From contig CANRJI010000001.1 of NCBI GenBank assembly GCA_947630885.1, positions 1-24,434 on the forward strand: a stretch of 24,434 bases of DNA, given 5' to 3'. This document shows, in pieces, positions 8,350 to 22,134 of the stretch (its first letter is position 1; each line of letters opens with the position of its first letter). A model generated the notes under the pieces. That model ran no database searches and was not told where the DNA came from. It was given only the letters and a program-made list of their open reading frames with translations. The DNA comes from an uncultured Bacilli bacterium. Lineage in GTDB: Bacteria > Bacillota_I > Bacilli_A > RF39 > UBA660. The translations under genes and the position numbers were made by a program.

Positions 8350-9099
8350 ATGAAAAGTAGTAGAATTATGAAAATATTTGAACAGTATGTAAGAAAATAT
8401 GATATGAATAATATTAATATTAAATCGAAATATTTTCATTCACTAAAAGTTATGGAAATTGTTAGAGATTTAGCGAATGGACTAGGTATTTTTTCGGAAG
8501 AAGAACTTGCCGTCTGTGAACTTATTGGTCTATTCCATGAAATTGGTAACTTTTCTAAAACTCCAAATTACCATATTGATGATGATAGTAGTGATTGTTA
8601 TGAAAGGACAATCGATGTACTATTTAATAAAAATTTAATTAGAGAAATTAGTAAGGAAACAAAATATGATAATATTATTAAGATGGCTATTTACTCTTAT
8701 GATAAGATGGGATTCCCTGAAGATATTGATGAAAAGACAAAGCATATTTGTGCTATTATAAAAGATGCTCATAACTTGGACTCGTTTAGATTATTTATTA
8801 ATTATCCTTATGTCGATACAAGAATTTCTTGTTATCCTAGTACACTCGTATACAATGACTTTAAGAATTTTAAGACAATAAGTCCAAAAATGAGTGAGAA
8901 TGCTTCAGATAGTGTCCTTGTCGTACTATCTAATATGTATGCCTTTAATTATAGATATTCTTATTACTTGTTAAAGGAAAATAAGTATATCGAAAAGATT
9001 TTTGATTCACTTACGTTTGACAGTGATGAGTTTAAAAACTTTTATAAACAGTTGATGACTGTTCTTAACGATTATGTAGATAAAAGGATTGGTGGTTAA
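8350..9099 (+). CDS. HD-domain-like protein with degenerate metal-binding motifs
   Basis: YFHSLKV...LIGLFHEIG...IKDAHNLD follows the H...HD...D layout of HD phosphohydrolases but has HE in place of HD. The likely start is ATG 8350 with SD GGAGG at 8340; the track start is 8332. Confidence 0.75.
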   Translation: MKSSRIMKIFEQYVRKYDMNNINIKSKYFHSLKVMEIVRDLANGLGIFSEEELAVCELIGLFHEIGNFSKTPNYHIDDDSSDCYERTIDVLFNKNLIREISKETKYDNIIKMAIYSYDKMGFPEDIDEKTKHICAIIKDAHNLDSFRLFINYPYVDTRISCYPSTLVYNDFKNFKTISPKMSENASDSVLVVLSNMYAFNYRYSYYLLKENKYIEKIFDSLTFDSDEFKNFYKQLMTVLNDYVDKRIGG

Positions 9100-9100
9100 A

Positions 9101-11530
9101 ATGCTCGATAAAAAATATGATCCAAAAGAGAAGGAAAAGAAATGGTTAGATTATTGGGAAAATAATAGTATTTATAAATTTGTACCAGATGAAAGAAAAA
9201 TATATTCAATTGATACTCCTCCTCCAACAGTAAATGGGAAAATTCATATAGGTCATATTTTTTCTTATTCACAAACAGAAATGATAGCAAGATATAAAAG
9301 ACTACGAGGATATAATATATTTTATCCATTTGGCTTTGATGATAATGGATTACCTAGTGAGAGATTGGTTGAAAAAGAACAGGGAAAGAAAGCTCACGAA
9401 ATAGGTAGAGAAAATTTTTCAAAACTATGTTATGAAACAACTGATAAATATGAGAAAGAATTTCAAACTTTATTTAGTAAAATGGGGGTAAGTACAGATT
9501 GGGATATACATTATAAAACGGTTAGTCCTTCGACGATTAAAATTAGTCAATTATCATTTCTAGATTTAATTGAAAAAGGGCATTGCTATCATAAAGAAAG
9601 TCCTGCTTTATGGTGTAATGAATGCTTAACATCTATTGCACAAGCAGAACTTGAAACGAAAACAATAAAAACAACATTTAATTATGTTAATTTTAAAACA
9701 GTTGAAGATGATGAAGAATTTACTATTGCTACAACAAGGCCAGAGTTATTACCCGCGATAGTTTGCGTATTTGTAAATCCAAATGATGAAGTTCATAAGC
9801 ATTTAATTGGAAAAACGGCTCATATTCCAGTAATTAATGTTGATGTCCCTATTATGGCAGATGAAAAAGTTGCTATTGATAAAGGTACTGGTGTTGTTAT
9901 GTGTTGTACCTTTGGAGATCAAACAGATATTGAATGGTGGAAAAAATATAATTTACCTTTAAAATATATTTTTACTGATGATGGAAGAATCGCTTCTGAA
10001 GTTCCAAATTATGGCGGAATGAAAATTAAAGAAGCTAGAAAACAAATAATTGAAGATTTACAAAATGGTGGATATGTAGTTAAAATTGAAGAATTGGAAC
10101 ATGAGGTTCAAACACATGAAAGATGTGGTAAAGAAGTAGAATACACGGTTATGAAACAATGGTTTATAGATATTATGAATCATAAAGAAGATTTCTTAAA
10201 AATTGGTAACAATATTAAATGGCATCCAGAACACATGCATACTAGATATGAGGAATGGGTAAATAATATTGCTTGGGATTGGTGCATATCAAGGCAAAGA
10301 TATTTTGGTGTTCCTTTTCCTGTTTGGTATTGTAAAGAATGTGGAAAACCAATTTTTGCTAAAAAAGAAGATTTACCTGTAAATCCCCTAGTTGATAATC
10401 CTAGTGTAAGTGAGTGCCCTAAATGTAAATGTAAGGAATTTTTACCTGAAACAGATGTTATGGATACATGGGCAACTTCTTCAGTAACTCCTTTAATCAA
10501 TATGAGATATGGCGAAGAAAATAATTATGAAAATTTATTAAAACCGATGAGTCTTAGGACTAATGCTTCAGAGATTATTAGAACATGGGATTTTTATACT
10601 ATTGTAAAAAGTTTTTATCATTTTGGTATTCGTCCATGGGATAATGTAATGATTTCAGGATTTGTTATGGCAGACAAAGGGGAAAAAATTAGTAAATCAA
10701 AAGGAAATAGCAAAGTAGAGCCTACTCAATTGATAGAAGAATATTCCGCTGACGTAATTAGATATTGGGCAGGATCAGGAAGACTTGGAACAGATATTGT
10801 ATTTAGTGAAGAAACGCTTTTGAGAGGAAAAAAATTACTAAATAAAATATGGAATGTATCTAAATTTATTGAAATGCATTTAGCAGATTATGAAGATAAA
10901 GACTTTAACAATTATGAATATGTAGATAAATGGATTTTAGGAGCATTCCAAGAAATGGAAAAAGGATTCATTAAATATTTAGACGAATATGAAGTTGGAT
11001 TAGCATTAAATCACTTGGAAAAATTCTTTTGGAATTTCTGCGATAACTATATAGAAATAGTAAAACATAGATTATATAGGCCAGAAGAATTTGGTGAAAT
11101 ACCAAGATATTCAGGTCAAAAAACTATTTACACGATTCTTTATAAATTATTACAAGACTTTAGTATTTTCTTCCCATTTATTACAGAAGAAATATATCAA
11201 GAATTATATCATAACAATAAATCAATACATTTAACAGAAATTAAACCTCTTGAGTTTGACTTTGATAAAGAAAGAAAAAATGGTAATGATATGATTGATA
11301 TTATTAGTCAAGCTAGAGGAGAGAAATCAAATAAAAATGTTTCCCTAAAAACATCAATTAAGAATTTAACTTTAAATTTGAATAAGGAATTAAAAGAAGC
11401 AATAGAATTATCAATGAAAGATTTTAAAGCAACATTATTTATTGAGAATTTAGAAATTAATGATGTACATAATGGATACTCTATCAATAAATTAGAATTG
11501 AATTTAGAAACAACAGAAAATAAGGAATAA
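9101..11530 (+). CDS. valS: Valyl-tRNA synthetase, short archaeal-like (type 2) form
   Basis: DTPPPTVNGKIHIGH (HIGH), FGFDDNGLPSERLVEK, editing domain ATTRPELL...GTGVVMCCTFGD, WDWCISRQRYFG, DVMDTWATSS, KISKSKGN (KMSKS site). No C-terminal coiled-coil arm. Start ATG 9101 lies 1 nt after the upstream TAA. Confidence 0.96.
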   Translation: MLDKKYDPKEKEKKWLDYWENNSIYKFVPDERKIYSIDTPPPTVNGKIHIGHIFSYSQTEMIARYKRLRGYNIFYPFGFDDNGLPSERLVEKEQGKKAHEIGRENFSKLCYETTDKYEKEFQTLFSKMGVSTDWDIHYKTVSPSTIKISQLSFLDLIEKGHCYHKESPALWCNECLTSIAQAELETKTIKTTFNYVNFKTVEDDEEFTIATTRPELLPAIVCVFVNPNDEVHKHLIGKTAHIPVINVDVPIMADEKVAIDKGTGVVMCCTFGDQTDIEWWKKYNLPLKYIFTDDGRIASEVPNYGGMKIKEARKQIIEDLQNGGYVVKIEELEHEVQTHERCGKEVEYTVMKQWFIDIMNHKEDFLKIGNNIKWHPEHMHTRYEEWVNNIAWDWCISRQRYFGVPFPVWYCKECGKPIFAKKEDLPVNPLVDNPSVSECPKCKCKEFLPETDVMDTWATSSVTPLINMRYGEENNYENLLKPMSLRTNASEIIRTWDFYTIVKSFYHFGIRPWDNVMISGFVMADKGEKISKSKGNSKVEPTQLIEEYSADVIRYWAGSGRLGTDIVFSEETLLRGKKLLNKIWNVSKFIEMHLADYEDKDFNNYEYVDKWILGAFQEMEKGFIKYLDEYEVGLALNHLEKFFWNFCDNYIEIVKHRLYRPEEFGEIPRYSGQKTIYTILYKLLQDFSIFFPFITEEIYQELYHNNKSIHLTEIKPLEFDFDKERKNGNDMIDIISQARGEKSNKNVSLKTSIKNLTLNLNKELKEAIELSMKDFKATLFIENLEINDVHNGYSINKLELNLETTENKE

Positions 11531-14830: not shown

Positions 14831-14855
14831 AAATTGCTCGAAAGGGCAATTTTTT
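14831..14855 (+). terminator. Intrinsic terminator after the deacetylase gene
   Basis: AAATTGCTC-gaaa-GGGCAATTT followed by T's. Confidence 0.75.
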
Positions 14856-14890
14856 ATTATACATCTGTTTGTTTTTTACTTTATTTATTA

Positions 14891-14919
14891 TTTACTTATA
14901 TAATAATTTATGCTATACT
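14891..14919 (+). promoter_or_regulatory. Sigma-A promoter (extended -10) of rmuC
   Basis: TTTACT (14891-14896), 17-nt spacer, TGc-TATACT (14914-14919). Confidence 0.6.
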
Positions 14920-14946
14920 TTGAATAGAAAAGGTAGGTGATATTAA

Positions 14947-16017
14947 ATGATGGATTATATTATTATTGGACTACTAGGAGTTGTAATTATTCTTGTTATC
15001 GTAGCTATTGTTAAAAATGTTAACGAAGGAAAAATTACGGAAAGAATAGGAAACTTGGAAACGAATACGGTTAAAGAATTATCTAAATTTCAGATTGATA
15101 TTATGAAGACAATGAATGATAACTTTAATGGTTTAAATGAAAGAATGGAAAGAAAACTTGACCAAATTAATAATAAAGTTAACGAAAGATTAGATGATAA
15201 TTTTGCTAAAACGAATAAGACTTTTACTAATATATTGGAAAGATTATCAAGAATTGATGAAGCACAGAAAAAAATTGATACGTTATCCACAGATATTGTT
15301 TCTTTACAAAGTATTTTAACAGATAAAAAGAGTAGAGGTATATTTGGAGAAATTAATCTTAAACATATTCTTGTCAGTATCTTTGGAGAGAAGAATGATA
15401 AAGTATATGCTCTTCAGTACAGTTTTCCTAATAATACAATTGCCGATGCGGTTATCTTTGCTCCCGCTCCACTAGGGACAGTGGCTATTGACTCAAAATT
15501 TCCTTTAGAAAATTATCAGAGAATGGTCGATAAAAATCTTCCACAGGTCGATAGAAATATTGCTGAAAAGGAATTTAAGATCGATGTTAAAAAGCATATT
15601 GATGCTATCAGTAGTAAATATATTATCCCTGGTATTACTTCAGATCAAGCGATTATGTTTTTACCAGCAGAAGCATTATTTGCAGAAATTAATGCATATC
15701 ACAGTGATTTAGTTGAATATGCACATAAAAAGAGAGTTTGGATTTGTTCGCCAACAACATTAATTTCAACATTTACTATTATTGAAGTTCTACTTAAAAA
15801 TATGGAAAGAGATAAATATGCAAGTATTATTCATGATGAGCTTAATAAGCTTGGAGTAGAATTTAGTAGATATAGGGAAAGATGGGATAAACTAGCTCGA
15901 AGTATGGAAACGGTAAACAAAGATATTGAAAATATTCATGTAACTACTGATAAAATTAGTAAACGTTTTGATTCGATAAGCCGTGTTGAAATTGAAGATA
16001 AAGATACGACATCATAA
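14947..16017 (+). CDS. rmuC: DNA recombination protein RmuC
   Basis: N-terminal TM helix plus coiled coil, KSRGIFGEINL, AIDSKFPLENY, AIMFLPAEALFAEI, VWICSPTTL. Confidence 0.95.
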   Translation: MMDYIIIGLLGVVIILVIVAIVKNVNEGKITERIGNLETNTVKELSKFQIDIMKTMNDNFNGLNERMERKLDQINNKVNERLDDNFAKTNKTFTNILERLSRIDEAQKKIDTLSTDIVSLQSILTDKKSRGIFGEINLKHILVSIFGEKNDKVYALQYSFPNNTIADAVIFAPAPLGTVAIDSKFPLENYQRMVDKNLPQVDRNIAEKEFKIDVKKHIDAISSKYIIPGITSDQAIMFLPAEALFAEINAYHSDLVEYAHKKRVWICSPTTLISTFTIIEVLLKNMERDKYASIIHDELNKLGVEFSRYRERWDKLARSMETVNKDIENIHVTTDKISKRFDSISRVEIEDKDTTS

Positions 16018-16067
16018 AAACTCTTAATAATATCTTACCATTTGAATAAAGTTTAATGAGGGATATT

Positions 16068-16289
16068 ATGGTAAGAGTTTTTTTCTTTTTACTTGGATTT
16101 GGTCTCATGGTTATTGGATGCAGTTTTATTATTTTATATTTAAACTTAACGACAATTGGGTATAATTTTATTGATTATGTCAATTTTATTAGCAGGAGAA
16201 TAGAGTGCTATTTTAGCATTATTGGACTTATAATGATGATTCTGTCAATGTCAATAAAAGGAGATATGAAAGATGAATTTTATATATGA
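16068..16289 (+). CDS. Small hypothetical membrane protein (two helices)
   Basis: FFLLGFGLMVIGCSFIILYLNL...FSIIGLIMMILSM; SD GAGGGA before ATG 16068 (track start 16056); overlaps the next gene. Confidence 0.7.
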   Translation: MVRVFFFLLGFGLMVIGCSFIILYLNLTTIGYNFIDYVNFISRRIECYFSIIGLIMMILSMSIKGDMKDEFYI

Positions 16290-16899
16290 TATAGTGCTTA
16301 ATTTTAATAAGGAATATTATAATTTTTTTGAATGGAATAGGAAAGATAATATTATTAATATTAAAAAAATCCCTTTTTTTATGGTCGATAATGAGACTTT
16401 TTTAACAATGAAATATGATCAGGTTACAGTATCAACAGCCTTTGTTGATATGATTAAAGATAAAACTTTTACTTATTCTAAATATAAAGTAGGTCCTTCT
16501 TGCCTTCTTACTAATGGGAAAGAAGTAATTGGTGTTCTTTTTAATGAAAGGGGAATGCTAGTTAAGAGAAGTTCTCTTCTTTTAGATGAAGAAGATGAGG
16601 TTTTAGAAGAAATGGATAGTGACAGTGTATATAAAATAGACATAGTTAAAATTAAAAAAGTTAAGCCTTCAAATATTAATAGAATGGAAAGAGAAAAGAA
16701 AGAGTTTTTAATTAAGTATATTAATAAAGAGAATAGTGAAATTAATTTAAAATATTTATTTTATGATTACTTTGAAAGAGATGAAGATAATATTAATAGT
16801 ATTAAAGAAATATTAATTAAAGAAATTAAGAATAATTGGAATGAAAAATTTAATAAATTTTATGAGACAGTTAAGATATTTAATAAAATTAAAAGTTAG
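16273..16899 (+). CDS. DUF3603 (YjbA-like) family protein
   Basis: N-terminus YDIVLNF...FFEWNRKDNI..IKKIP and later KRSSLLLDEEDEV resemble DUF3603, recognised from memory; SD AAAGGAG. Confidence 0.65.
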   Translation: MNFIYDIVLNFNKEYYNFFEWNRKDNIINIKKIPFFMVDNETFLTMKYDQVTVSTAFVDMIKDKTFTYSKYKVGPSCLLTNGKEVIGVLFNERGMLVKRSSLLLDEEDEVLEEMDSDSVYKIDIVKIKKVKPSNINRMEREKKEFLIKYINKENSEINLKYLFYDYFERDEDNINSIKEILIKEIKNNWNEKFNKFYETVKIFNKIKS

Positions 16900-16932
16900 T
16901 TAGTATTTATAAGAATTGTTTAATATAAAGAG

Positions 16933-16968
16933 ACAAAAAAACAAAATGAATGATTTTGCTTTTTTTGT
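16933..16968. terminator. Probable bidirectional terminator between convergent DUF3603 and AraC genes
   Basis: ACAAAAAAACAAAAT-gaatg-ATTTTGCTTTTTTTGT imperfect hairpin with A and T tracts. Confidence 0.5.
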
Positions 16969-16971
16969 TTG

Positions 16972-17442
16972 CTAATGAAAAATAGATAATTTTCGGATGG
17001 GATTAGTCGTTGGTTTAAGATGATTGCGATACTTTTGAACTTTCTCTAGTAATATTTCAATAGATGTCATATTAGTTATAATAGTTAAACGAAGGTCATC
17101 ATTAACAGATTCATCGTTATGACAGAATTTTTTAAAAAGGCTGGGACTCACACCAATAATGGCTTTAAAGGTTTCGGAAAAGTACTCTAAAGAATAAAAG
17201 CCATTATTTATCGAAACATTGGTATAGGTATGATTTGTCATACGAATTTCTTTTAATGCATTATTAATACGTAAAGTGTTAATGTACTCAAAAATGGTTA
17301 TGCCTATTTCTTTTTTAAATAGTTTCATAAGGTAATATCTATTATAATAAAACTTTTTTGATAGGTCATCAATAGTTATTTTGCTATTTAGATTTAAATC
17401 GATGTAATCTAAAATATCACATACTAATTTATTTGAATACAT
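16972..17442 (-). CDS. AraC/XylS family regulator, DNA-binding domain only, plus a ~50-aa C-terminal extension
   Basis: ILDYIDLNLNSKITIDDLSKKFYYNRYYLMKLFKKEIG...LRINNA...GFYSLEYFSETFKAIIGVSP (double HTH); SD GAGGTG. Confidence 0.92.
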   Translation of the reverse strand: MYSNKLVCDILDYIDLNLNSKITIDDLSKKFYYNRYYLMKLFKKEIGITIFEYINTLRINNALKEIRMTNHTYTNVSINNGFYSLEYFSETFKAIIGVSPSLFKKFCHNDESVNDDLRLTIITNMTSIEILLEKVQKYRNHLKPTTNPIRKLSIFH

Positions 17443-17459
17443 AGCTTGTCACCTCTTAC

Positions 17460-17488
17460 ATTATACACAAAAGATGATATTTTAGCAA
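17460..17488 (-). promoter_or_regulatory. Sigma-A promoter of the AraC gene
   Basis: Minus strand: TTGCTA (17488-17483), 17-nt spacer, TATAAT (17465-17460). Confidence 0.6.
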
Positions 17489-17558
17489 ATTTAGCCACTA
17501 TTGTTTAAACTATTTTGCTTTTTTAATGATAAATTATTGGTGAAAGGAGAAAAAAAAT

Positions 17559-18932
17559 ATGAAAAAAACAAATTGGTGTACAAAAGAAGAAATGAAAAAA
17601 ATACTTACATCTGTCGATGTAAAAGGGGAAAATGTTAAGGCTGGCATTCCTGTAATGTATGACGATAACTATTTATATGTTAACGATAAAGTTGAACATA
17701 CTTTGGTTATTGGTTCATCTGGTAGTGGGAAAACACAGACAACTATTTTGCCAATGCTTAAACTGGCTATGAAGGCAGGTGAATCGATTGTTCTAAATGA
17801 TGTTAAGGGTGATATTTACAGAATGACCGCCAAAGAGTTGGAAAGGAATGGTTATAAAACAGTAGTTTTAGATATTGAAAATCCTAATTTAGGTAATTCT
17901 TGGAATCCATTTGCTCTTCCTTACAAATTATATAAAGAAGGTATGGTTGACAAAGCAATGGAGCTTCTTGAAAACATTATATACTACTTATTTAATGATC
18001 CTAAAGACAAATCGGCAAATATTGATCCATTCTGGACAAATACTTCAATTGATTATCTTACTGGTATGTCACTATATTTGTTTAGTGTCGCTAAAGAAGA
18101 AGAAATTAATTTAAAAAGTATATATGAACTTGCTATTACGGTATCAGGCTCTGAAGAAAAAGTGATTAAGGAATTTTTATCTAAAGTTGATAAAACGTCA
18201 AGTGTTTACTTTAACATCTATGGAACTTTAAGCACTCCTGTCGAAACGAGAAGTGGTATTATTGCAACTTTAAATAGTAAGATTAGACCTTATGTTTCAC
18301 GTGATAGTCTATCTAACATGATGGGGGCTACAGACTTTGATATAGAAAATATTGGTAATGAAAAGATGGCTATCTTTATTGTAAGTGGTAATACAGAGTA
18401 TAGTGATAATTTAATTCCTTTATTTGTAAATCAGGTTATTGACTGTGTCGATATTTATGGAAAAAGAGAGAAAAAAATTAATGTGTTATTAGATGAATTT
18501 GATTCATTACTTCCAATTAAGAATTTTTCAAAACTAATTAGTTATGCTAAAGGATTAAATATTAGATTTATAGCGGTAATTAAAAGCTATGTCAGTCTAA
18601 TGAATACTTATGGTAAAGATGGTTTAGAAATTATTAAAATGTGTTTTGGTAATGTTATCTATCTATTATCTAATGATATATACACTCTCGAAGAAGTTAG
18701 CAATTTGTGTGGAAATGTAACTGATGAAAAAGGTAATAGCACACCTTTAATATCAACTCAAGAACTTAAAATGATGGATAATTTTGAAGCTATTATTGTA
18801 ATGCCAAGAACTATGCCTTTTAGAACTCATCTTCTTCCTGATTATAAAATTGATTGGGGATTTGAAGACTCTTTGGTCGACATTCCTAAAAGAAAAGAGA
18901 ATGTAATTAATGTATATGATTGCACTAAATAA
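17559..18932 (+). CDS. VirD4/TraG-like type IV coupling ATPase lacking an N-terminal membrane anchor
   Basis: HTLVIGSSGSGKT (Walker A), SIVLNDVKGDIY, GNSWNPF, DPFW, Walker B VLLDEFDSL, YGKD...GNVIYL; strong SD GAAAGGAG. Confidence 0.88.
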   Translation: MKKTNWCTKEEMKKILTSVDVKGENVKAGIPVMYDDNYLYVNDKVEHTLVIGSSGSGKTQTTILPMLKLAMKAGESIVLNDVKGDIYRMTAKELERNGYKTVVLDIENPNLGNSWNPFALPYKLYKEGMVDKAMELLENIIYYLFNDPKDKSANIDPFWTNTSIDYLTGMSLYLFSVAKEEEINLKSIYELAITVSGSEEKVIKEFLSKVDKTSSVYFNIYGTLSTPVETRSGIIATLNSKIRPYVSRDSLSNMMGATDFDIENIGNEKMAIFIVSGNTEYSDNLIPLFVNQVIDCVDIYGKREKKINVLLDEFDSLLPIKNFSKLISYAKGLNIRFIAVIKSYVSLMNTYGKDGLEIIKMCFGNVIYLLSNDIYTLEEVSNLCGNVTDEKGNSTPLISTQELKMMDNFEAIIVMPRTMPFRTHLLPDYKIDWGFEDSLVDIPKRKENVINVYDCTK

Positions 18933-18955
18933 ATTTTTGCTTAACAAGGTGATTT

Positions 18956-19651
18956 ATGAAAAAGAAAAATAATATAATATATGTACCGGTCGATGTCGTT
19001 TACGATGACCCTGATTATGTAGCAAGTTCTTATTTGAATTGTTCTTATGGGCTTGCTCCAGTAGGTTTATTTGTAAGAGACTATCATGCTTGGGAACAGA
19101 ATTTTGCAAATTTTAAAGCAGATATTACGGACATTCCATTTAATTATAGTCCTGATGTATGGAGTCCATACTTTGAAAAAGGAACTTTTAAACATCGTGG
19201 TCAGCAATATAAATGCGTTAAAATCTCAGATAATGATATGTGCTCTATTAATAATGTATTATCCGGCTTTAATATGGAAGCTAAGCAAAAAGAGTTACCC
19301 GCGATTAGGGCTACCGATTTAACAGAACTTACAATTGATAATACAACATACATTTTTCTTAGCAATACTAGCAATATTAATTTAAATGTAATTACTGACT
19401 TATATGTTGTTACAGGTGATGAATCATATACTCCAAGAGAAGCTCTCGAAAGGTTTTTATCATTTGAACTTCCAGTTGGGTATAAAACTTTTGAACTTCT
19501 TCCGGGAGTAGATGCTATTGGATATACGAAAGATACAGAAATTGCTGTACTTCGCTATAGTAATAAGAAAAAAGATGAAAAAATTGCAGAGTTATCGAAA
19601 AAAATTTACGGCAAAAGTAAACCTAAAGTTCGAGTTCTTACAAAGGAATAA
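18956..19651 (+). CDS. Hypothetical protein, probably co-transcribed with the VirD4-like gene
   Basis: 231-aa ORF 23 nt after the VirD4-like stop, SD AAGGTGA, followed by a terminator; no family recognised. Confidence 0.8.
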   Translation: MKKKNNIIYVPVDVVYDDPDYVASSYLNCSYGLAPVGLFVRDYHAWEQNFANFKADITDIPFNYSPDVWSPYFEKGTFKHRGQQYKCVKISDNDMCSINNVLSGFNMEAKQKELPAIRATDLTELTIDNTTYIFLSNTSNINLNVITDLYVVTGDESYTPREALERFLSFELPVGYKTFELLPGVDAIGYTKDTEIAVLRYSNKKKDEKIAELSKKIYGKSKPKVRVLTKE

Positions 19652-19658
19652 ACTTGAT

Positions 19659-19685
19659 AAAGCATACTAAAACGGTATGCTTTTC
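19659..19685 (+). terminator. Intrinsic terminator after the hypothetical gene
   Basis: AAAGCATAC-taaaacg-GTATGCTTT followed by t, c, t. Confidence 0.7.
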
Positions 19686-19747
19686 TATTATAAGTTTTTA
19701 TTTTTATTGAAATTATAATGTGTAATTAAAACTATTAAATAAAGAAA

Positions 19748-19769
19748 AAGACTACTAATTTGTAGTCTT
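19748..19769 (-). terminator. Distal copy of the prsA terminator hairpin (retains the U tract); left target-site duplication
   Basis: AAGACTAC-taattt-GTAGTCTT. On the minus strand it is followed by TTTTCTTT (plus-strand aaagaaaa, 19741-19747). Confidence 0.75.
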
Positions 19770-19960
19770 CAGACTGTTGACAAACTACATTTTTAGTAAA
19801 AACCAAAATTTGAAAATTCTAAAAGTGGAAGAGAAAGTTAAAAATTGAGTGTTATTTGATATTAAAAATTCAAATTCACTCTTTTTTTAGTACTAAAGTG
19901 GGAGATTAAAAAAGCCGATTGACAAAGCCGGTTTGAAAAACCGACTTTGTCAACGGCCTG
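19770..19960. mobile_element. 191-bp non-autonomous element (MITE), IS1182-family-like ends
   Basis: Terminal inverted repeats CAGACTGTTGACAAA (19770-19784) and TTTGTCAACGGCCTG (19946-19960) match at 13/15. Flanked by an exact 22-bp direct repeat. Subterminal hairpin at 19919-19953. No transposase ORF. Confidence 0.8.
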
Positions 19961-19982
19961 AAGACTACTAATTTGTAGTCTT
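19961..19982. repeat. Right copy of the 22-bp direct repeat (duplicated terminator hairpin)
   Basis: AAGACTACTAATTTGTAGTCTT, identical to 19748-19769. Confidence 0.95.
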
Positions 19983-19990
19983 AATTTTGT

Positions 19991-21115
19991 CTATTTATAT
20001 TGATCCATATAAACTTCATATTTCTTTTCAAGTGAGGTATCAGAGAACTTTAATCCTGCATCTTTTCTCATTTTATCTAAACTGTTACCATATAGATTCT
20101 TATCATCAGTAAGCTTTTTGTCACCAAGAGTATCTAATATTTCTTTTTTAACATCTTCAAGAGCAGGTTTTTCTTTTTGGTCTATACGATAAACAACGTG
20201 ATAGCCATAAGAAGTTTTAACTGGAGTCTTACTATAACTTCCATTAGAAAGTGCTTTCATTTCATCCATGTATGCTGATTCAAGAGAAGCATTATAAGCT
20301 TTATAACCTAATTCTTCATAAGTTATTCTATCAGCATATTCTTCTTTTACTTCATCAAAACTCTTACCTTCATCTAGTTTAGATATTATTTCTTTAGCTA
20401 AATTTTCAGCTTCGGTTTTTTCTTCGGTAGTTGCGGAACTATCAACTTTAACTAACATATGTTTAGTATTGATATCACCAAATACTTCTTTTTCATAGTA
20501 GTCATTTATTTCGTTATCCGTTACTAAAGATTTAGCATAATCTTTGGAATATTTATCTCTTCGATATTGAAGTTTTAAATATTCAAGGAAGGATGCTTCA
20601 CTTGCAAAACCATAATTAGCTAAAAATTCTTCTTTGGTGTAACCATAATATTGGTCATTAACACTGTAGTAATTTTCGGCTTCACTTTGAACTTCATCAA
20701 TCATCTCATCATTTTCGGGATACTTTTCAGTAAGAATTTTATTATCTATTTTATCAAGTAGAGCTGAGATAGAATAGATAACTTTCATATCTTCATATAA
20801 ATCATCAGCAGTTACGACCATTCCTTCAATTTCAGCGACTGGTTCAGTTCCATCTTCTAACTTAGCAATTCTTTCAGGCCAAATAAGAACGGTAACAAGT
20901 GATGTTATAAGTATACCTCCAACTAAACCATAAATAGCCAAACGATATTTGTCAAAGAAAGCAAAAAATTTAAAAATTGCTTCATCGCTGTTTCTCTTAG
21001 TTTTTGCTTTATTATTATCTTTTCTTTCTTTTACTTTGTTTTTTTCTTTTACTAATTTATTTGTTTTAACTTCTTTTTCTTCTGTCTTTTTTGTATCATT
21101 TTTTTTCTTTGCCAT
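19991..21115 (-). CDS. prsA: PrsA-like parvulin peptidyl-prolyl isomerase/foldase, membrane-anchored
   Basis: Parvulin motifs TKHMLVK, GKSFDEVKEEY, SKTPVKTSYGYHVV; SurA-like N-domain; one TM helix. Start moved to ATG 21115 (SD GAAAGGAG); track start is 21148. Confidence 0.85.
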   Translation of the reverse strand: MAKKKNDTKKTEEKEVKTNKLVKEKNKVKERKDNNKAKTKRNSDEAIFKFFAFFDKYRLAIYGLVGGILITSLVTVLIWPERIAKLEDGTEPVAEIEGMVVTADDLYEDMKVIYSISALLDKIDNKILTEKYPENDEMIDEVQSEAENYYSVNDQYYGYTKEEFLANYGFASEASFLEYLKLQYRRDKYSKDYAKSLVTDNEINDYYEKEVFGDINTKHMLVKVDSSATTEEKTEAENLAKEIISKLDEGKSFDEVKEEYADRITYEELGYKAYNASLESAYMDEMKALSNGSYSKTPVKTSYGYHVVYRIDQKEKPALEDVKKEILDTLGDKKLTDDKNLYGNSLDKMRKDAGLKFSDTSLEKKYEVYMDQYK

Positions 21116-21143
21116 TTTATTTCTCCTTTCAATGTACATTAAT

Positions 21144-21172
21144 ATCATAGCAAAATTAAGGAAAAATTACAA
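21144..21172 (-). promoter_or_regulatory. Sigma-A promoter (extended -10) of prsA
   Basis: Minus strand: TTGTAA (21172-21167), 17-nt spacer, TGc-TATGAT (21149-21144). Confidence 0.6.
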
Positions 21173-21253
21173 TATTAATTTGTAATTATGGGTTATTTAC
21201 CATAATTTTTTGGCTTTATATTAGTGATAAATAATAAGGTGGGTAATAAGGCG

Positions 21254-21282
21254 ACACCTTTTTTTAGTTTTACCATAAAATA
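21254..21282 (+). promoter_or_regulatory. Candidate sigma-K (mother-cell sporulation) promoter
   Basis: ACAC at 21254-21257, 16-nt spacer, CATAAAATA at 21274-21282, matching the AC-N16/17-CATAnnnTA consensus; lies upstream of the YjcZ-like genes. Confidence 0.4.
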
Positions 21283-21313
21283 TTGTGAATAGAAAAAAAA
21301 GGAGGAATGTATT

Positions 21314-21394
21314 ATGGGTAACTGTGGTTCTTCAGCAGCAATCGTTTTAGTTTTATTCATTCTATTAATAATCATACTAGGCGCTTGGATATAA
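21314..21394 (+). CDS. YjcZ/SscA-family tiny sporulation membrane peptide (26 aa), absent from the ORF track
   Basis: SD GGAGG at 21301; MGNCGSSAAIVLVLFILLIIILGAWI*, carrying the family's A-x-I-x-V-L-F-I-L-L-I-I-x-G motif. Confidence 0.85.
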   Translation: MGNCGSSAAIVLVLFILLIIILGAWI

Positions 21395-21410
21395 AAAGGA
21401 GGTGTTAACT

Positions 21411-21524
21411 ATGTCTGGAAATAGTTCTTGTAATGGTTCTACCAATAGTGGGAATGGCTTCTTAATAGTGGTTGTTCTATACATACTACTTGCTATTATA
21501 CTAGGTTCTGCTTTCTTATTCTAA
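21411..21524 (+). CDS. Second YjcZ/SscA-family peptide (37 aa), absent from the ORF track
   Basis: SD AAGGAGGTG at 21396-21404; MSGNSSCNGSTNSGNGFLIVVVLYILLAIILGSAFLF*, with a Gly/Ser/Asn-rich head and an F-x-I-V-V-V-L-Y-I-L-L-A-I-I-L-G helix. Confidence 0.85.
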   Translation: MSGNSSCNGSTNSGNGFLIVVVLYILLAIILGSAFLF

Positions 21525-21541
21525 AATTTTTTACTTTTGAG

Positions 21542-21566
21542 AAACTATCTTCGGATAGTTTTTTTT
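21542..21566 (+). terminator. Intrinsic terminator after the YjcZ-like pair
   Basis: AAACTATC-ttcg-GATAGTTT (cUUCGg tetraloop) followed by a T run. Confidence 0.85.
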
Positions 21567-21623
21567 GTAAAAAGAACTTGCATTTTAAGATACAAGTCCT
21601 TTTAAATTTAATATAGATTTTCT

Positions 21624-21980
21624 TTATTTTAATTTATTATATACTTCTCCAAGAGATATCTTACTTTCTTCTTTATACTTAGGAATTAAATGTAAATGAT
21701 AGTGCTTTACCTCTTGACCAAGACCATTATTTTGACACATTGAAATACCATCATAATTTAATCTTTCTTTTAATAGTTTAGCAATATCTTTAGCAACTTT
21801 GTATACATGCATAAGGGTATCTTCGTCTATATCAAAAAAATCTTGATAATGCTTTTTAGGGACGATTAGGGTGTGTCCATTGTGATTAGGGTTGACATCT
21901 AAAAAGACTTTGACAATATCATCTTCATATAAGGTATATGAAGGAATTTCATTATTAATTATTTTACAAAATATGTCCAT
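21624..21980 (-). CDS. hit: HIT family nucleotide hydrolase (HinT)
   Basis: DIFCKIINNEIPS, FLDVNP...GHTLIVPKKH, histidine triad HYHLHLIP; SD GGAGG. Confidence 0.95.
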   Translation of the reverse strand: MDIFCKIINNEIPSYTLYEDDIVKVFLDVNPNHNGHTLIVPKKHYQDFFDIDEDTLMHVYKVAKDIAKLLKERLNYDGISMCQNNGLGQEVKHYHLHLIPKYKEESKISLGEVYNKLK

Positions 21981-22134
21981 TACTTACCTCCAAGAATAGT
22001 ATAACAAAAAAGAGAAAATAAATAAATATCTTCTCTAATGAATATCTGCGAATATTCTAATTTTATTATGTAAAATTTGTGGATATTTTATTCAAAATAT
22101 TAACTTTTTATGGTTTATTTGATATAATTTAAGT

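Follow-up and report, generated by a model that had tools for sequence, protein, structure and literature searches.

Coupling proteins are usually regarded as membrane-bound motors of conjugation or effector systems, and a gene for a soluble copy of one, standing among housekeeping genes, raises the question of what such a copy is for. The gene examined here lies at positions 17559-18932 (+) of a 24,434-nucleotide stretch of DNA from an uncultured Bacilli bacterium (lineage RF39, UBA660; GenBank assembly GCA_947630885.1, contig CANRJI010000001.1, positions 1 to 24,434), which we refer to as the window. The original prediction described the gene as a domesticated orphan of the class of type IV coupling proteins (T4CPs), possibly an effector-recruiting adaptor or a partner of a coupling protein encoded elsewhere. 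We found instead that it makes up one half of an accessory cassette that moves horizontally and whose other half encodes an AraC-type regulator, and tentatively propose that its product modulates a type IV secretion system (T4SS) resident in the same cells.

The gene is a real, intact copy of a VirD4/TrwB-type coupling protein gene that lacks the membrane anchor. The 457-aa open reading frame (ORF) follows a strong Shine-Dalgarno sequence (GAAAGGAG, 17542-17549), and its product, the short protein, matched the Pfam families T4SS-DNA_transf (PF02534; 140.3 bits against a cut-off of 20.1, E = 1.1e-40, profile positions 22-395 of 468), TraG-D_C (PF12696; 55.6 bits, cut-off 22) and TrwB_AAD_bind (PF10412; 47.9 bits, cut-off 20.5). 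On the NCBIfam model NF045973 it scored 195.9 bits, below the equivalog cut-off of 250. As predicted, the protein is soluble: its highest 19-residue Kyte-Doolittle mean (KD19) was 1.07, with no segment reaching 1.6, so that it has no membrane segment, whereas a long paralogue in the same genome reached 3.07 and has two helices at approximately residues 8-42 and 58-83. After these helices the long paralogue reads RWATDSEF, the counterpart of NWCTKEEM at residues 5-12 of the short protein, both fitting the W-x-T-x-x-E motif with which the soluble part of such proteins begins. A truncation peculiar to this genome could be excluded, in that the relatives have no upstream transmembrane segment and those aligned start with the same motif, and the spacer that separates the gene from the divergent AraC-type gene is 116 bp, which leaves no room upstream for an overlooked or lost transmembrane exon. 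The acidic C-terminal tail of the long paralogue is also missing. The Walker motifs are intact and the segment that reads R-S-x-G-I...Q-S in canonical proteins is altered, both as originally described, residues 330-343 being AKGLNIRFIAVIKS.

The fold is likewise that of a coupling protein. An AlphaFold model of the short protein, made with 33 relatives, is complete and of high confidence (predicted local distance difference test, pLDDT, 91.8; predicted template-modelling score, pTM, 0.91), and it places an all-alpha domain (helices within residues 119-254) as an insertion in a RecA-like nucleotide-binding domain (NBD), as in TrwB. The top matches of the model in the PDB, obtained with Foldseek, were Cagbeta of Helicobacter pylori (8DOL) and TrwB of R388 (1GKI/1E9R), followed by HerA and DotL; matches to TrwB and Cagbeta had E values from 1e-15 to 1e-19 and template-modelling scores of 0.66-0.76 at only 14-19% identity, and a single-sequence phmmer search of the PDB sequences gave no match at E<=0.01. 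Both TrwB and Cagbeta are membrane-anchored parts of working secretion systems, and two catalytic residues of TrwB, R375 and Q386, mapped here by profile alignment, are both Lys in the short protein. In family models, NBD/all-alpha fold and Walker A and B motifs the protein is thus a T4CP, and it departs from the class in lacking the N-terminal transmembrane anchor that most members, not all, possess and the residues equivalent to R375 and Q386.

The short gene does not stand alone. A divergent gene for an AraC-type protein of approximately 155 aa lies beside it in 31 of 31 loci (30 fetched and the window), and the spacer between the two genes, otherwise variable, has in all 31 a conserved 14-bp box at a distance of 54-60 nt from the start of the T4CP gene. 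Counting four cassettes whose T4CP has lost its P-loop, the AraC-type gene and the box accompany the short T4CP in all 35 cassettes examined, and neither occurs beside any of 40 long or integrative and conjugative element (ICE)-type T4CP loci. Searching from the other side, full-length homologues of the regulator were found in 25 of 301 genomes, including all 22 for which a short form was listed; each of the remaining three has a second, unlisted T4CP match. Only the two coding sequences are common to the transferred copies described below, with no small membrane-anchor gene among them. The functional unit is therefore a two-gene cassette of approximately 2 kb, consisting of the regulator, the shared control region and the soluble T4CP paralogue, and not an orphan.

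The regulator carries both AraC-type helix-turn-helix (HTH) motifs, scoring 56.3 bits on HTH_18 (PF12833; cut-off 33.6) and 55.7 bits on HTH_AraC (PF00165; cut-off 26.6), and lies below every NCBIfam equivalog cut-off. Its model (pLDDT 92) consists of a seven-helix, MarA-like double-HTH domain (residues 5-107), to which are added a long helix (115-140) and a C-terminal tail that is predicted to be disordered yet is conserved and basic (consensus KP..VKKLSIFK). In its size of about 150 aa, double HTH and lack of an N-terminal ligand-binding domain it resembles the MarA/SoxS type, from which the added helix, the conserved basic tail and the strict linkage to a T4CP-like gene set it apart. The box adjoins the -35 element of the promoter-like site of the regulator gene and presumably serves the AraC-type protein as its operator. 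It had no second exact copy in the 0.9-Mb assembly, and matches with one mismatch were unconvincing.

To place the cassette in its lineage, we used a sample of 299 other genomes of the family, spanning more than 120 genera of uncultured gut Bacilli with genomes of 0.6-1.6 Mb. The short form was listed in 21 of them, and the cassette occurs in approximately 8% of species. Half of the species in the genus of the window (12 of 24) have the short form, whereas a search of 350 genomes from 29 further families of the class yielded none. In a collection of 5.8 billion proteins, the best 120 of more than 900 relatives were 438-488 aa long and at most 63% identical to the window protein, and those aligned begin at the same motif. 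When an exhaustive search was reduced to representatives at 50% identity, approximately 30 clusters of short forms were followed by long forms. Among sequencing runs, no RNA data set was listed, and the DNA data sets with a partial match came from gut metagenomes, including those of rabbits.

Comparison of pairs of related copies indicates that both cassette genes are under purifying selection, the ratio of nonsynonymous to synonymous substitution (dN/dS, Nei-Gojobori) being 0.07-0.21 in the short gene and 0.03-0.18 in the regulator gene. Two genomes have an interrupted copy of the short T4CP gene, with three internal stop codons in G266 (C5:20438-21757; locus L035) and one in G240 (C1:26496-27797; locus L034), indicating that some lineages are losing it.

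The same comparisons point to transfer of the cassette between genera. The 2.0-kb unit is 86-99% identical between genera (91-99% among copies in five genera, with synonymous divergence, dS, of 0.004-0.32), whereas the long T4CP genes of the same pairs have dS values of 1.2-3.1. The identity stops at the two stop codons, beyond which the flanks are unrelated and consist of ordinary chromosomal genes; a search for terminal repeats of a mobile element around the cassette found no ends common to the copies. Fragments of a large serine recombinase or an IS30-like transposase stand beside some copies (L078:6166-6750, L081:15110-16321, the left flank of L082 at approximately 8900-9170, and L080:12914-13825) and hint at how the cassette moves. 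In the window, the blocks on either side (rmuC, orf77 and orf208 at 14850-16910; the prsA-like gene and the HIT gene at 19986-21993) are collinear in three congeners (G019, G010 and G020), where they stand only 22-170 bp apart, and the DNA between them is thus an insertion, in which the cassette arrived (Table 1).

This insertion and the remainder of the genome qualify the view of the gene as an orphan in a housekeeping region. The description holds within the window, where domain scans of ORFs of at least 100 aa revealed no relaxase, VirB4 or integrase and where the GC content of the gene matches its surroundings, both in agreement with the original prediction. It fails for the host genome (G000, a 0.90-Mb metagenome-assembled genome that is 76% complete), which encodes a T4SS and a second T4CP on contig C13. 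The operon (locus L018:6037-16022, minus strand; also locus L088 of genome G301) contains, in order, a T4SS-pilin-like gene, a VirB6/TrbL-like gene (674 aa), two small genes, a VirB4-like ATPase gene (594 aa), a gene for an M23-peptidase/lysozyme hydrolase (537 aa), a 289-aa gene and the 710-aa T4CP gene (C13 6037-8169), with rhodanese, yunB, sufB and ssb beyond it. For both the VirB4-like and the VirB6-like protein the closest families are those of Mycoplasma ICEs (Mbov_0397 in the case of the VirB4-like protein), at scores below the cut-offs. Relaxase families PF03432, PF03389 and PF02486 had no match in the 76%-complete assembly, and a Pfam scan of ten ORFs around the core T4SS genes of a relative assembled as a single contig likewise found no relaxase. 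A T4CP match at E<=1e-60 is present in 288 of the 299 family genomes, nearly always long, in open frames of 660-900 aa. As an observation in its own right, these genomes of approximately 1 Mb contain a core, apparently relaxase-less T4SS among their housekeeping genes.

The 710-aa protein is the closest known counterpart of the short protein. It belongs to NF045973, the "VirD4-like conjugal transfer protein, CD1115 family", and the two are 36% identical over residues 4-454, sharing the W-x-T-x-x-E start of the soluble part, the NBD/all-alpha arrangement and the GN.WNP, DPFW and YG motifs. They differ in that the long form has two transmembrane helices, an acidic disordered tail of approximately 150 aa and a T4SS operon setting, passes the NF045973 cut-off that the short form fails (280.3 bits for the long form) and keeps R-S-R...Q...Q invariantly; its nearest database relatives are 83-86% identical, compared with 63% for the short form. 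The original suggestion of a partnership with another T4CP of the cell thereby gains a concrete candidate, since a membrane-anchored paralogue, from a sister lineage, exists in the T4SS operon.

A maximum-likelihood tree of 71 core regions (quick search, long branches flagged) suggests where the short family came from. The 31 short proteins form one clade with a Shimodaira-Hasegawa-like approximate likelihood ratio test (SH-aLRT) value of 100 on a stem of 0.79, with branches longer than those of the long clade. The short and long chromosomal T4CPs together are split (SH-aLRT 99) from the T4CPs of ICE type that these genomes also encode, and the node that joins the short and long clades is poorly resolved (38). 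Because of this low value we limit the claim to descent of the short family from the chromosomal T4CP stock of the lineage and not from ICE genes.

The catalytic site has changed throughout the short clade. We compared 31 long and nine ICE-type proteins with the 31 short proteins. At position 331, equivalent to TrwB R375, which is an arginine finger acting in trans (PMC9886983), Arg is present in all long and ICE-type proteins and in 30 short proteins, the window protein having Lys. Two residues after the finger, at position 333, the Arg found in all long and ICE-type proteins is a hydrophobic residue in 31 of 31 short proteins. Position 342 (TrwB Q386) is Gln in all 40 long and ICE-type proteins and varies among the short ones (Lys in 16, Arg in nine, Asn in three, Gln in two and Met in one), while position 346 is Gln in 39 of the 40 and never in a short protein. 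The Glu of Walker B, invariant in the long and ICE-type proteins, is Asp in 10 of the 31.

Loss extends to the P-loop, which is unrecognizable in nine of 33 cluster representatives at 50% identity (P0245, P0247, P0250, P0254, P0255, P0271, P0275, P0278 and P0291; for example, GSDDKENLE or TEDDIQKEN in its place), all from full-length ORFs. The four that were traced to their contigs all have intact ORFs and retain the AraC-type gene and the box. Compared domain by domain, identity among long forms is highest in the C-terminal half of the NBD (80%), which is also, the short C-terminal end aside, the region least conserved between short and long forms (35%), whereas the all-alpha domain is best retained between the two (41%). 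Taken together, these patterns show that selection on the short family does not require canonical motor chemistry in many lineages, and the clade-wide loss of catalytic residues, with repeated loss of the P-loop, makes an active effector-recruiting ATPase, one of the roles initially envisaged, less likely.

We therefore consider a role for the soluble paralogue that does not involve transport by the protein itself, and regard it, at slightly less than even confidence, as a cytoplasmic protein that modulates the resident T4SS, competes with it or serves it as an adaptor. The paralogue arose once, losing the two transmembrane helices and the acidic tail and keeping the NBD/all-alpha fold while its ATPase centre was remodelled. 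Under this proposal the AraC-type protein would control expression of the cassette through the 14-bp box, and the retained T4CP surfaces would bind either the membrane T4CP, in mixed rings, or the substrates of that T4CP, while the soluble protein itself would pump no substrates. Engineered T4CP variants are dominant-negative, and mutants without a transmembrane domain (TMD) are non-functional in conjugation assays (PMC7431656), which by analogy makes interference by a soluble paralogue plausible.

Several points weigh against this proposal. The link to the T4SS is an indirect one, resting on ancestry, on the retained fold and on co-occurrence. Co-occurrence is itself little informative, since nearly every genome of the family has a T4SS: the cassette is absent from all 11 genomes without a close T4CP match, among which approximately one would be expected to have it. 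In addition, the window protein keeps a canonical P-loop and the Walker B Asp-Glu pair and so may bind and perhaps hydrolyse ATP. The single box in the assembly leaves no visible regulatory tie to the T4SS operon, a point limited by the fact that the upstream end of the operon runs off contig C13 and that the assembly is 76% complete. Finally, the patchy distribution, the transfer, the faster evolution and the recombinase or insertion sequence neighbours would fit a role in conflict or defence equally well.

Such a role would make the cassette a conflict module unrelated to host secretion, either a decoy or sensor directed against incoming conjugative elements or phage DNA, as in fertility inhibition or exclusion, or a defence gene that works by itself as an NTPase and has a regulator of its own. 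We regard this as improbable but worth taking seriously, given that the cassette is found in only approximately 8% of species, moves between genera, has a faster rate of evolution than the long paralogue and is inserted in the form of small islets, in many cases beside serine-recombinase or IS30 fragments, and that the ICE-type T4CPs present in these genomes mean that potential targets exist. However, the cassette has no linked effector domain such as a nuclease or toxin, and its PADLOC matches are weak and at the level of the P-loop only (mad8, 33 bits; HerA, 12-15 bits). The nearest relatives of the short proteins, moreover, are the chromosomal T4CPs of the hosts and not ICE T4CPs, and in the genomes searched the short form was confined to the family that has the core T4SS.

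A slightly weaker candidate, and in our view an unlikely one, is an active alternative coupling protein, a hexameric ATPase with substrates of its own that docks on the resident T4SS through another membrane protein; this corresponds to the effector-recruiting adaptor of the original prediction. Coupling proteins without a TMD are a recognized class (class iii of Llosa and Alkorta 2017, as cited in PMC7431656), exemplified by TraJ of plasmid pIP501, for which the small membrane protein TraI is the proposed membrane anchor and which interacts with the relaxase TraA (PMC12857230); the docking envisaged here is modelled on that TraJ/TraI proposal. By description, TraJ resembles the short protein in being a VirD4-type NBD protein without a TMD from a Firmicute, and differs in that it is encoded in a tra operon, whereas the short protein has no tra context, co-inherited anchor or relaxase, is accompanied by an AraC-type regulator of its own and has undergone remodelling of its catalytic site. 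Activity would be consistent with the intact Walker motifs of the window protein and most of its close relatives, with the Arg retained at the finger position in 30 of 31 relatives and with the retention of the all-alpha domain, the substrate-recognition part of T4CPs. Against it stand the clade-wide loss of the Gln equivalent to Q386, kept in only two of 31 short forms, and of the second invariant Arg, the Lys at the finger position of the window protein itself and the destruction of the P-loop in lineages that nevertheless keep the regulator gene and the box. Nor does a small membrane-anchor gene travel with the two coding sequences, and the missing acidic tail and the relaxase that was not detected in the 76%-complete genome argue in the same direction.

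Two further readings assign the regulator a larger part. Type III secretion systems have chaperone/AraC circuits that sense secretion. A type IV analogue of these, on a horizontally spreading cassette, would have a T4CP-derived pseudo-ATPase act as a receptor that binds the AraC tail, T4SS substrates or the long T4CP and thereby couples the state of the T4SS to transcription or throttles the T4SS; we think this conceivable but rather doubtful. A little more doubtful again is that the T4CP-like protein serves as a transcription co-regulator, which would bind the AraC tail and sequester or co-activate the regulator, with ligand or substrate occupancy setting transcription, again by analogy with the chaperone/AraC pairs of type III systems. 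The strict co-inheritance, joint transfer and matched divergence of the two genes (approximately 45-50% identity in both), the unusual extra helix and conserved basic disordered tail of the AraC-type protein and the dispensability of the ATPase motifs in many lineages are in keeping with a co-regulator. Yet the pairing is accounted for just as well if the divergent regulator does no more than control the adjacent gene, and the uniqueness of the box in the assembly leaves the cassette itself as the only visible target. A decaying remnant of an ICE, named in the original prediction as a finding that would refute it, accounts for the patchiness, the recombinase fragments beside some copies and the internal stops in two of about 21 copies, but we reject it as very improbable because selection is not relaxed, the regulator and box are strictly conserved, the best 120 relatives have a uniform range of lengths and those aligned a common start, the structural model is complete and of high confidence, and the short clade is distinct from ICE T4CPs.

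The other contents of the insertion are not part of the cassette (Table 1). The ORFan gene orf231 is probably co-transcribed with the T4CP gene in this genome, and a terminator-like hairpin lies 3' of it at 19659-19683. A three-gene module that includes orf231 was considered and rejected: the protein has no Pfam, NCBIfam or PADLOC family and no match in the protein Atlas, and no homologue of it was found in 300 genomes of the family or adjoining other cassettes. At the insertion edges, a 24-nt imperfect inverted repeat (16915-16938 and 19985-20008) overlaps the end of the prsA-like coding sequence and, the DNA being AT-rich, may have arisen by chance. The remaining genes of the window are of housekeeping type, namely parB, a dnaD-like gene, dnaI, dnaE, gmk, a class I aminoacyl-tRNA synthetase gene, rmuC, the prsA-like gene, the HIT gene and hpf, and an Rfam scan of the window gave no match. 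The synthetase (9089-11530, 813 aa) has the Pfam domains tRNA-synt_1 and Anticodon_1 and a weak match to a Leu-type editing domain. The genes orf77 (with two hydrophobic segments) and orf208 (no family), at 16056-16899, fall within the rmuC block that is collinear in the congeners and are thus conserved core genes without an assigned function, outside the insertion.

Table 1. Positions of the cassette, its sites and the accompanying elements in the window
Feature	Position	Strand	Description
3.07-kb insertion	16911..19985	.	absent from three congeners; carries regulator, short T4CP, ORFan and MITE-like element
AraC-type regulator, 156 aa	16972..17442	-	Pfam HTH_18, HTH_AraC; divergent neighbour of short T4CP gene
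Divergent control region	17443..17558	.	promoter-like site of AraC-type gene and Shine-Dalgarno sequence of T4CP gene
Promoter-like site for AraC-type gene	17488 to 17460	-	TTGCTA-N17-TATAAT
Conserved 14-bp box	17495..17508	+	CCACTATTGTTTAA; family consensus AAAAAG[CT]CAyTwTTGTTTAA
Soluble type IV coupling protein paralogue	17559..18932	+	457 aa; NBD plus all-alpha domain; from Pfam, hydropathy, model and alignments
Walker A	residues 52-59; 17712-17735	+	GSSGSGKT; intact
Walker B	residues 310-314; D312-E313 at 18492-18497	+	LLDEF; intact
K331	18549-18551	+	replaces TrwB R375 arginine finger
K342	18582-18584	+	replaces TrwB Q386
orf231, ORFan	18956..19651	+	starts 24 nt past T4CP stop; outside conserved cassette
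Miniature inverted-repeat transposable element (MITE)-like element	19748..19982	.	right edge of insertion; 22-bp hairpin AAGACTACTAATTTGTAGTCTT directly repeated at both ends; 47-nt inverted arms

In a limited literature search, we found no description of a stand-alone, regulator-linked T4CP paralogue with a degenerate catalytic site, and nothing relevant on RF39 with a T4SS or on orphan or AraC-linked T4CPs. What sets this cassette apart is a soluble copy of a coupling protein, its ATPase site remodelled and in many lineages dead, that is kept under selection beside a private regulator. The label "conjugal transfer protein" on such genes would falsely imply a mobile conjugative element. The host bacteria have reduced genomes of approximately 1 Mb, nearly all of which have a chromosomal T4SS that is related to the T4SSs of Mycoplasma ICEs. 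If the paralogue modulates this T4SS, it would be a natural case in which type IV secretion is regulated or interfered with by a coupling-protein decoy, and it would provide a handle on the role of the conserved T4SS in an abundant, uncultured gut lineage.

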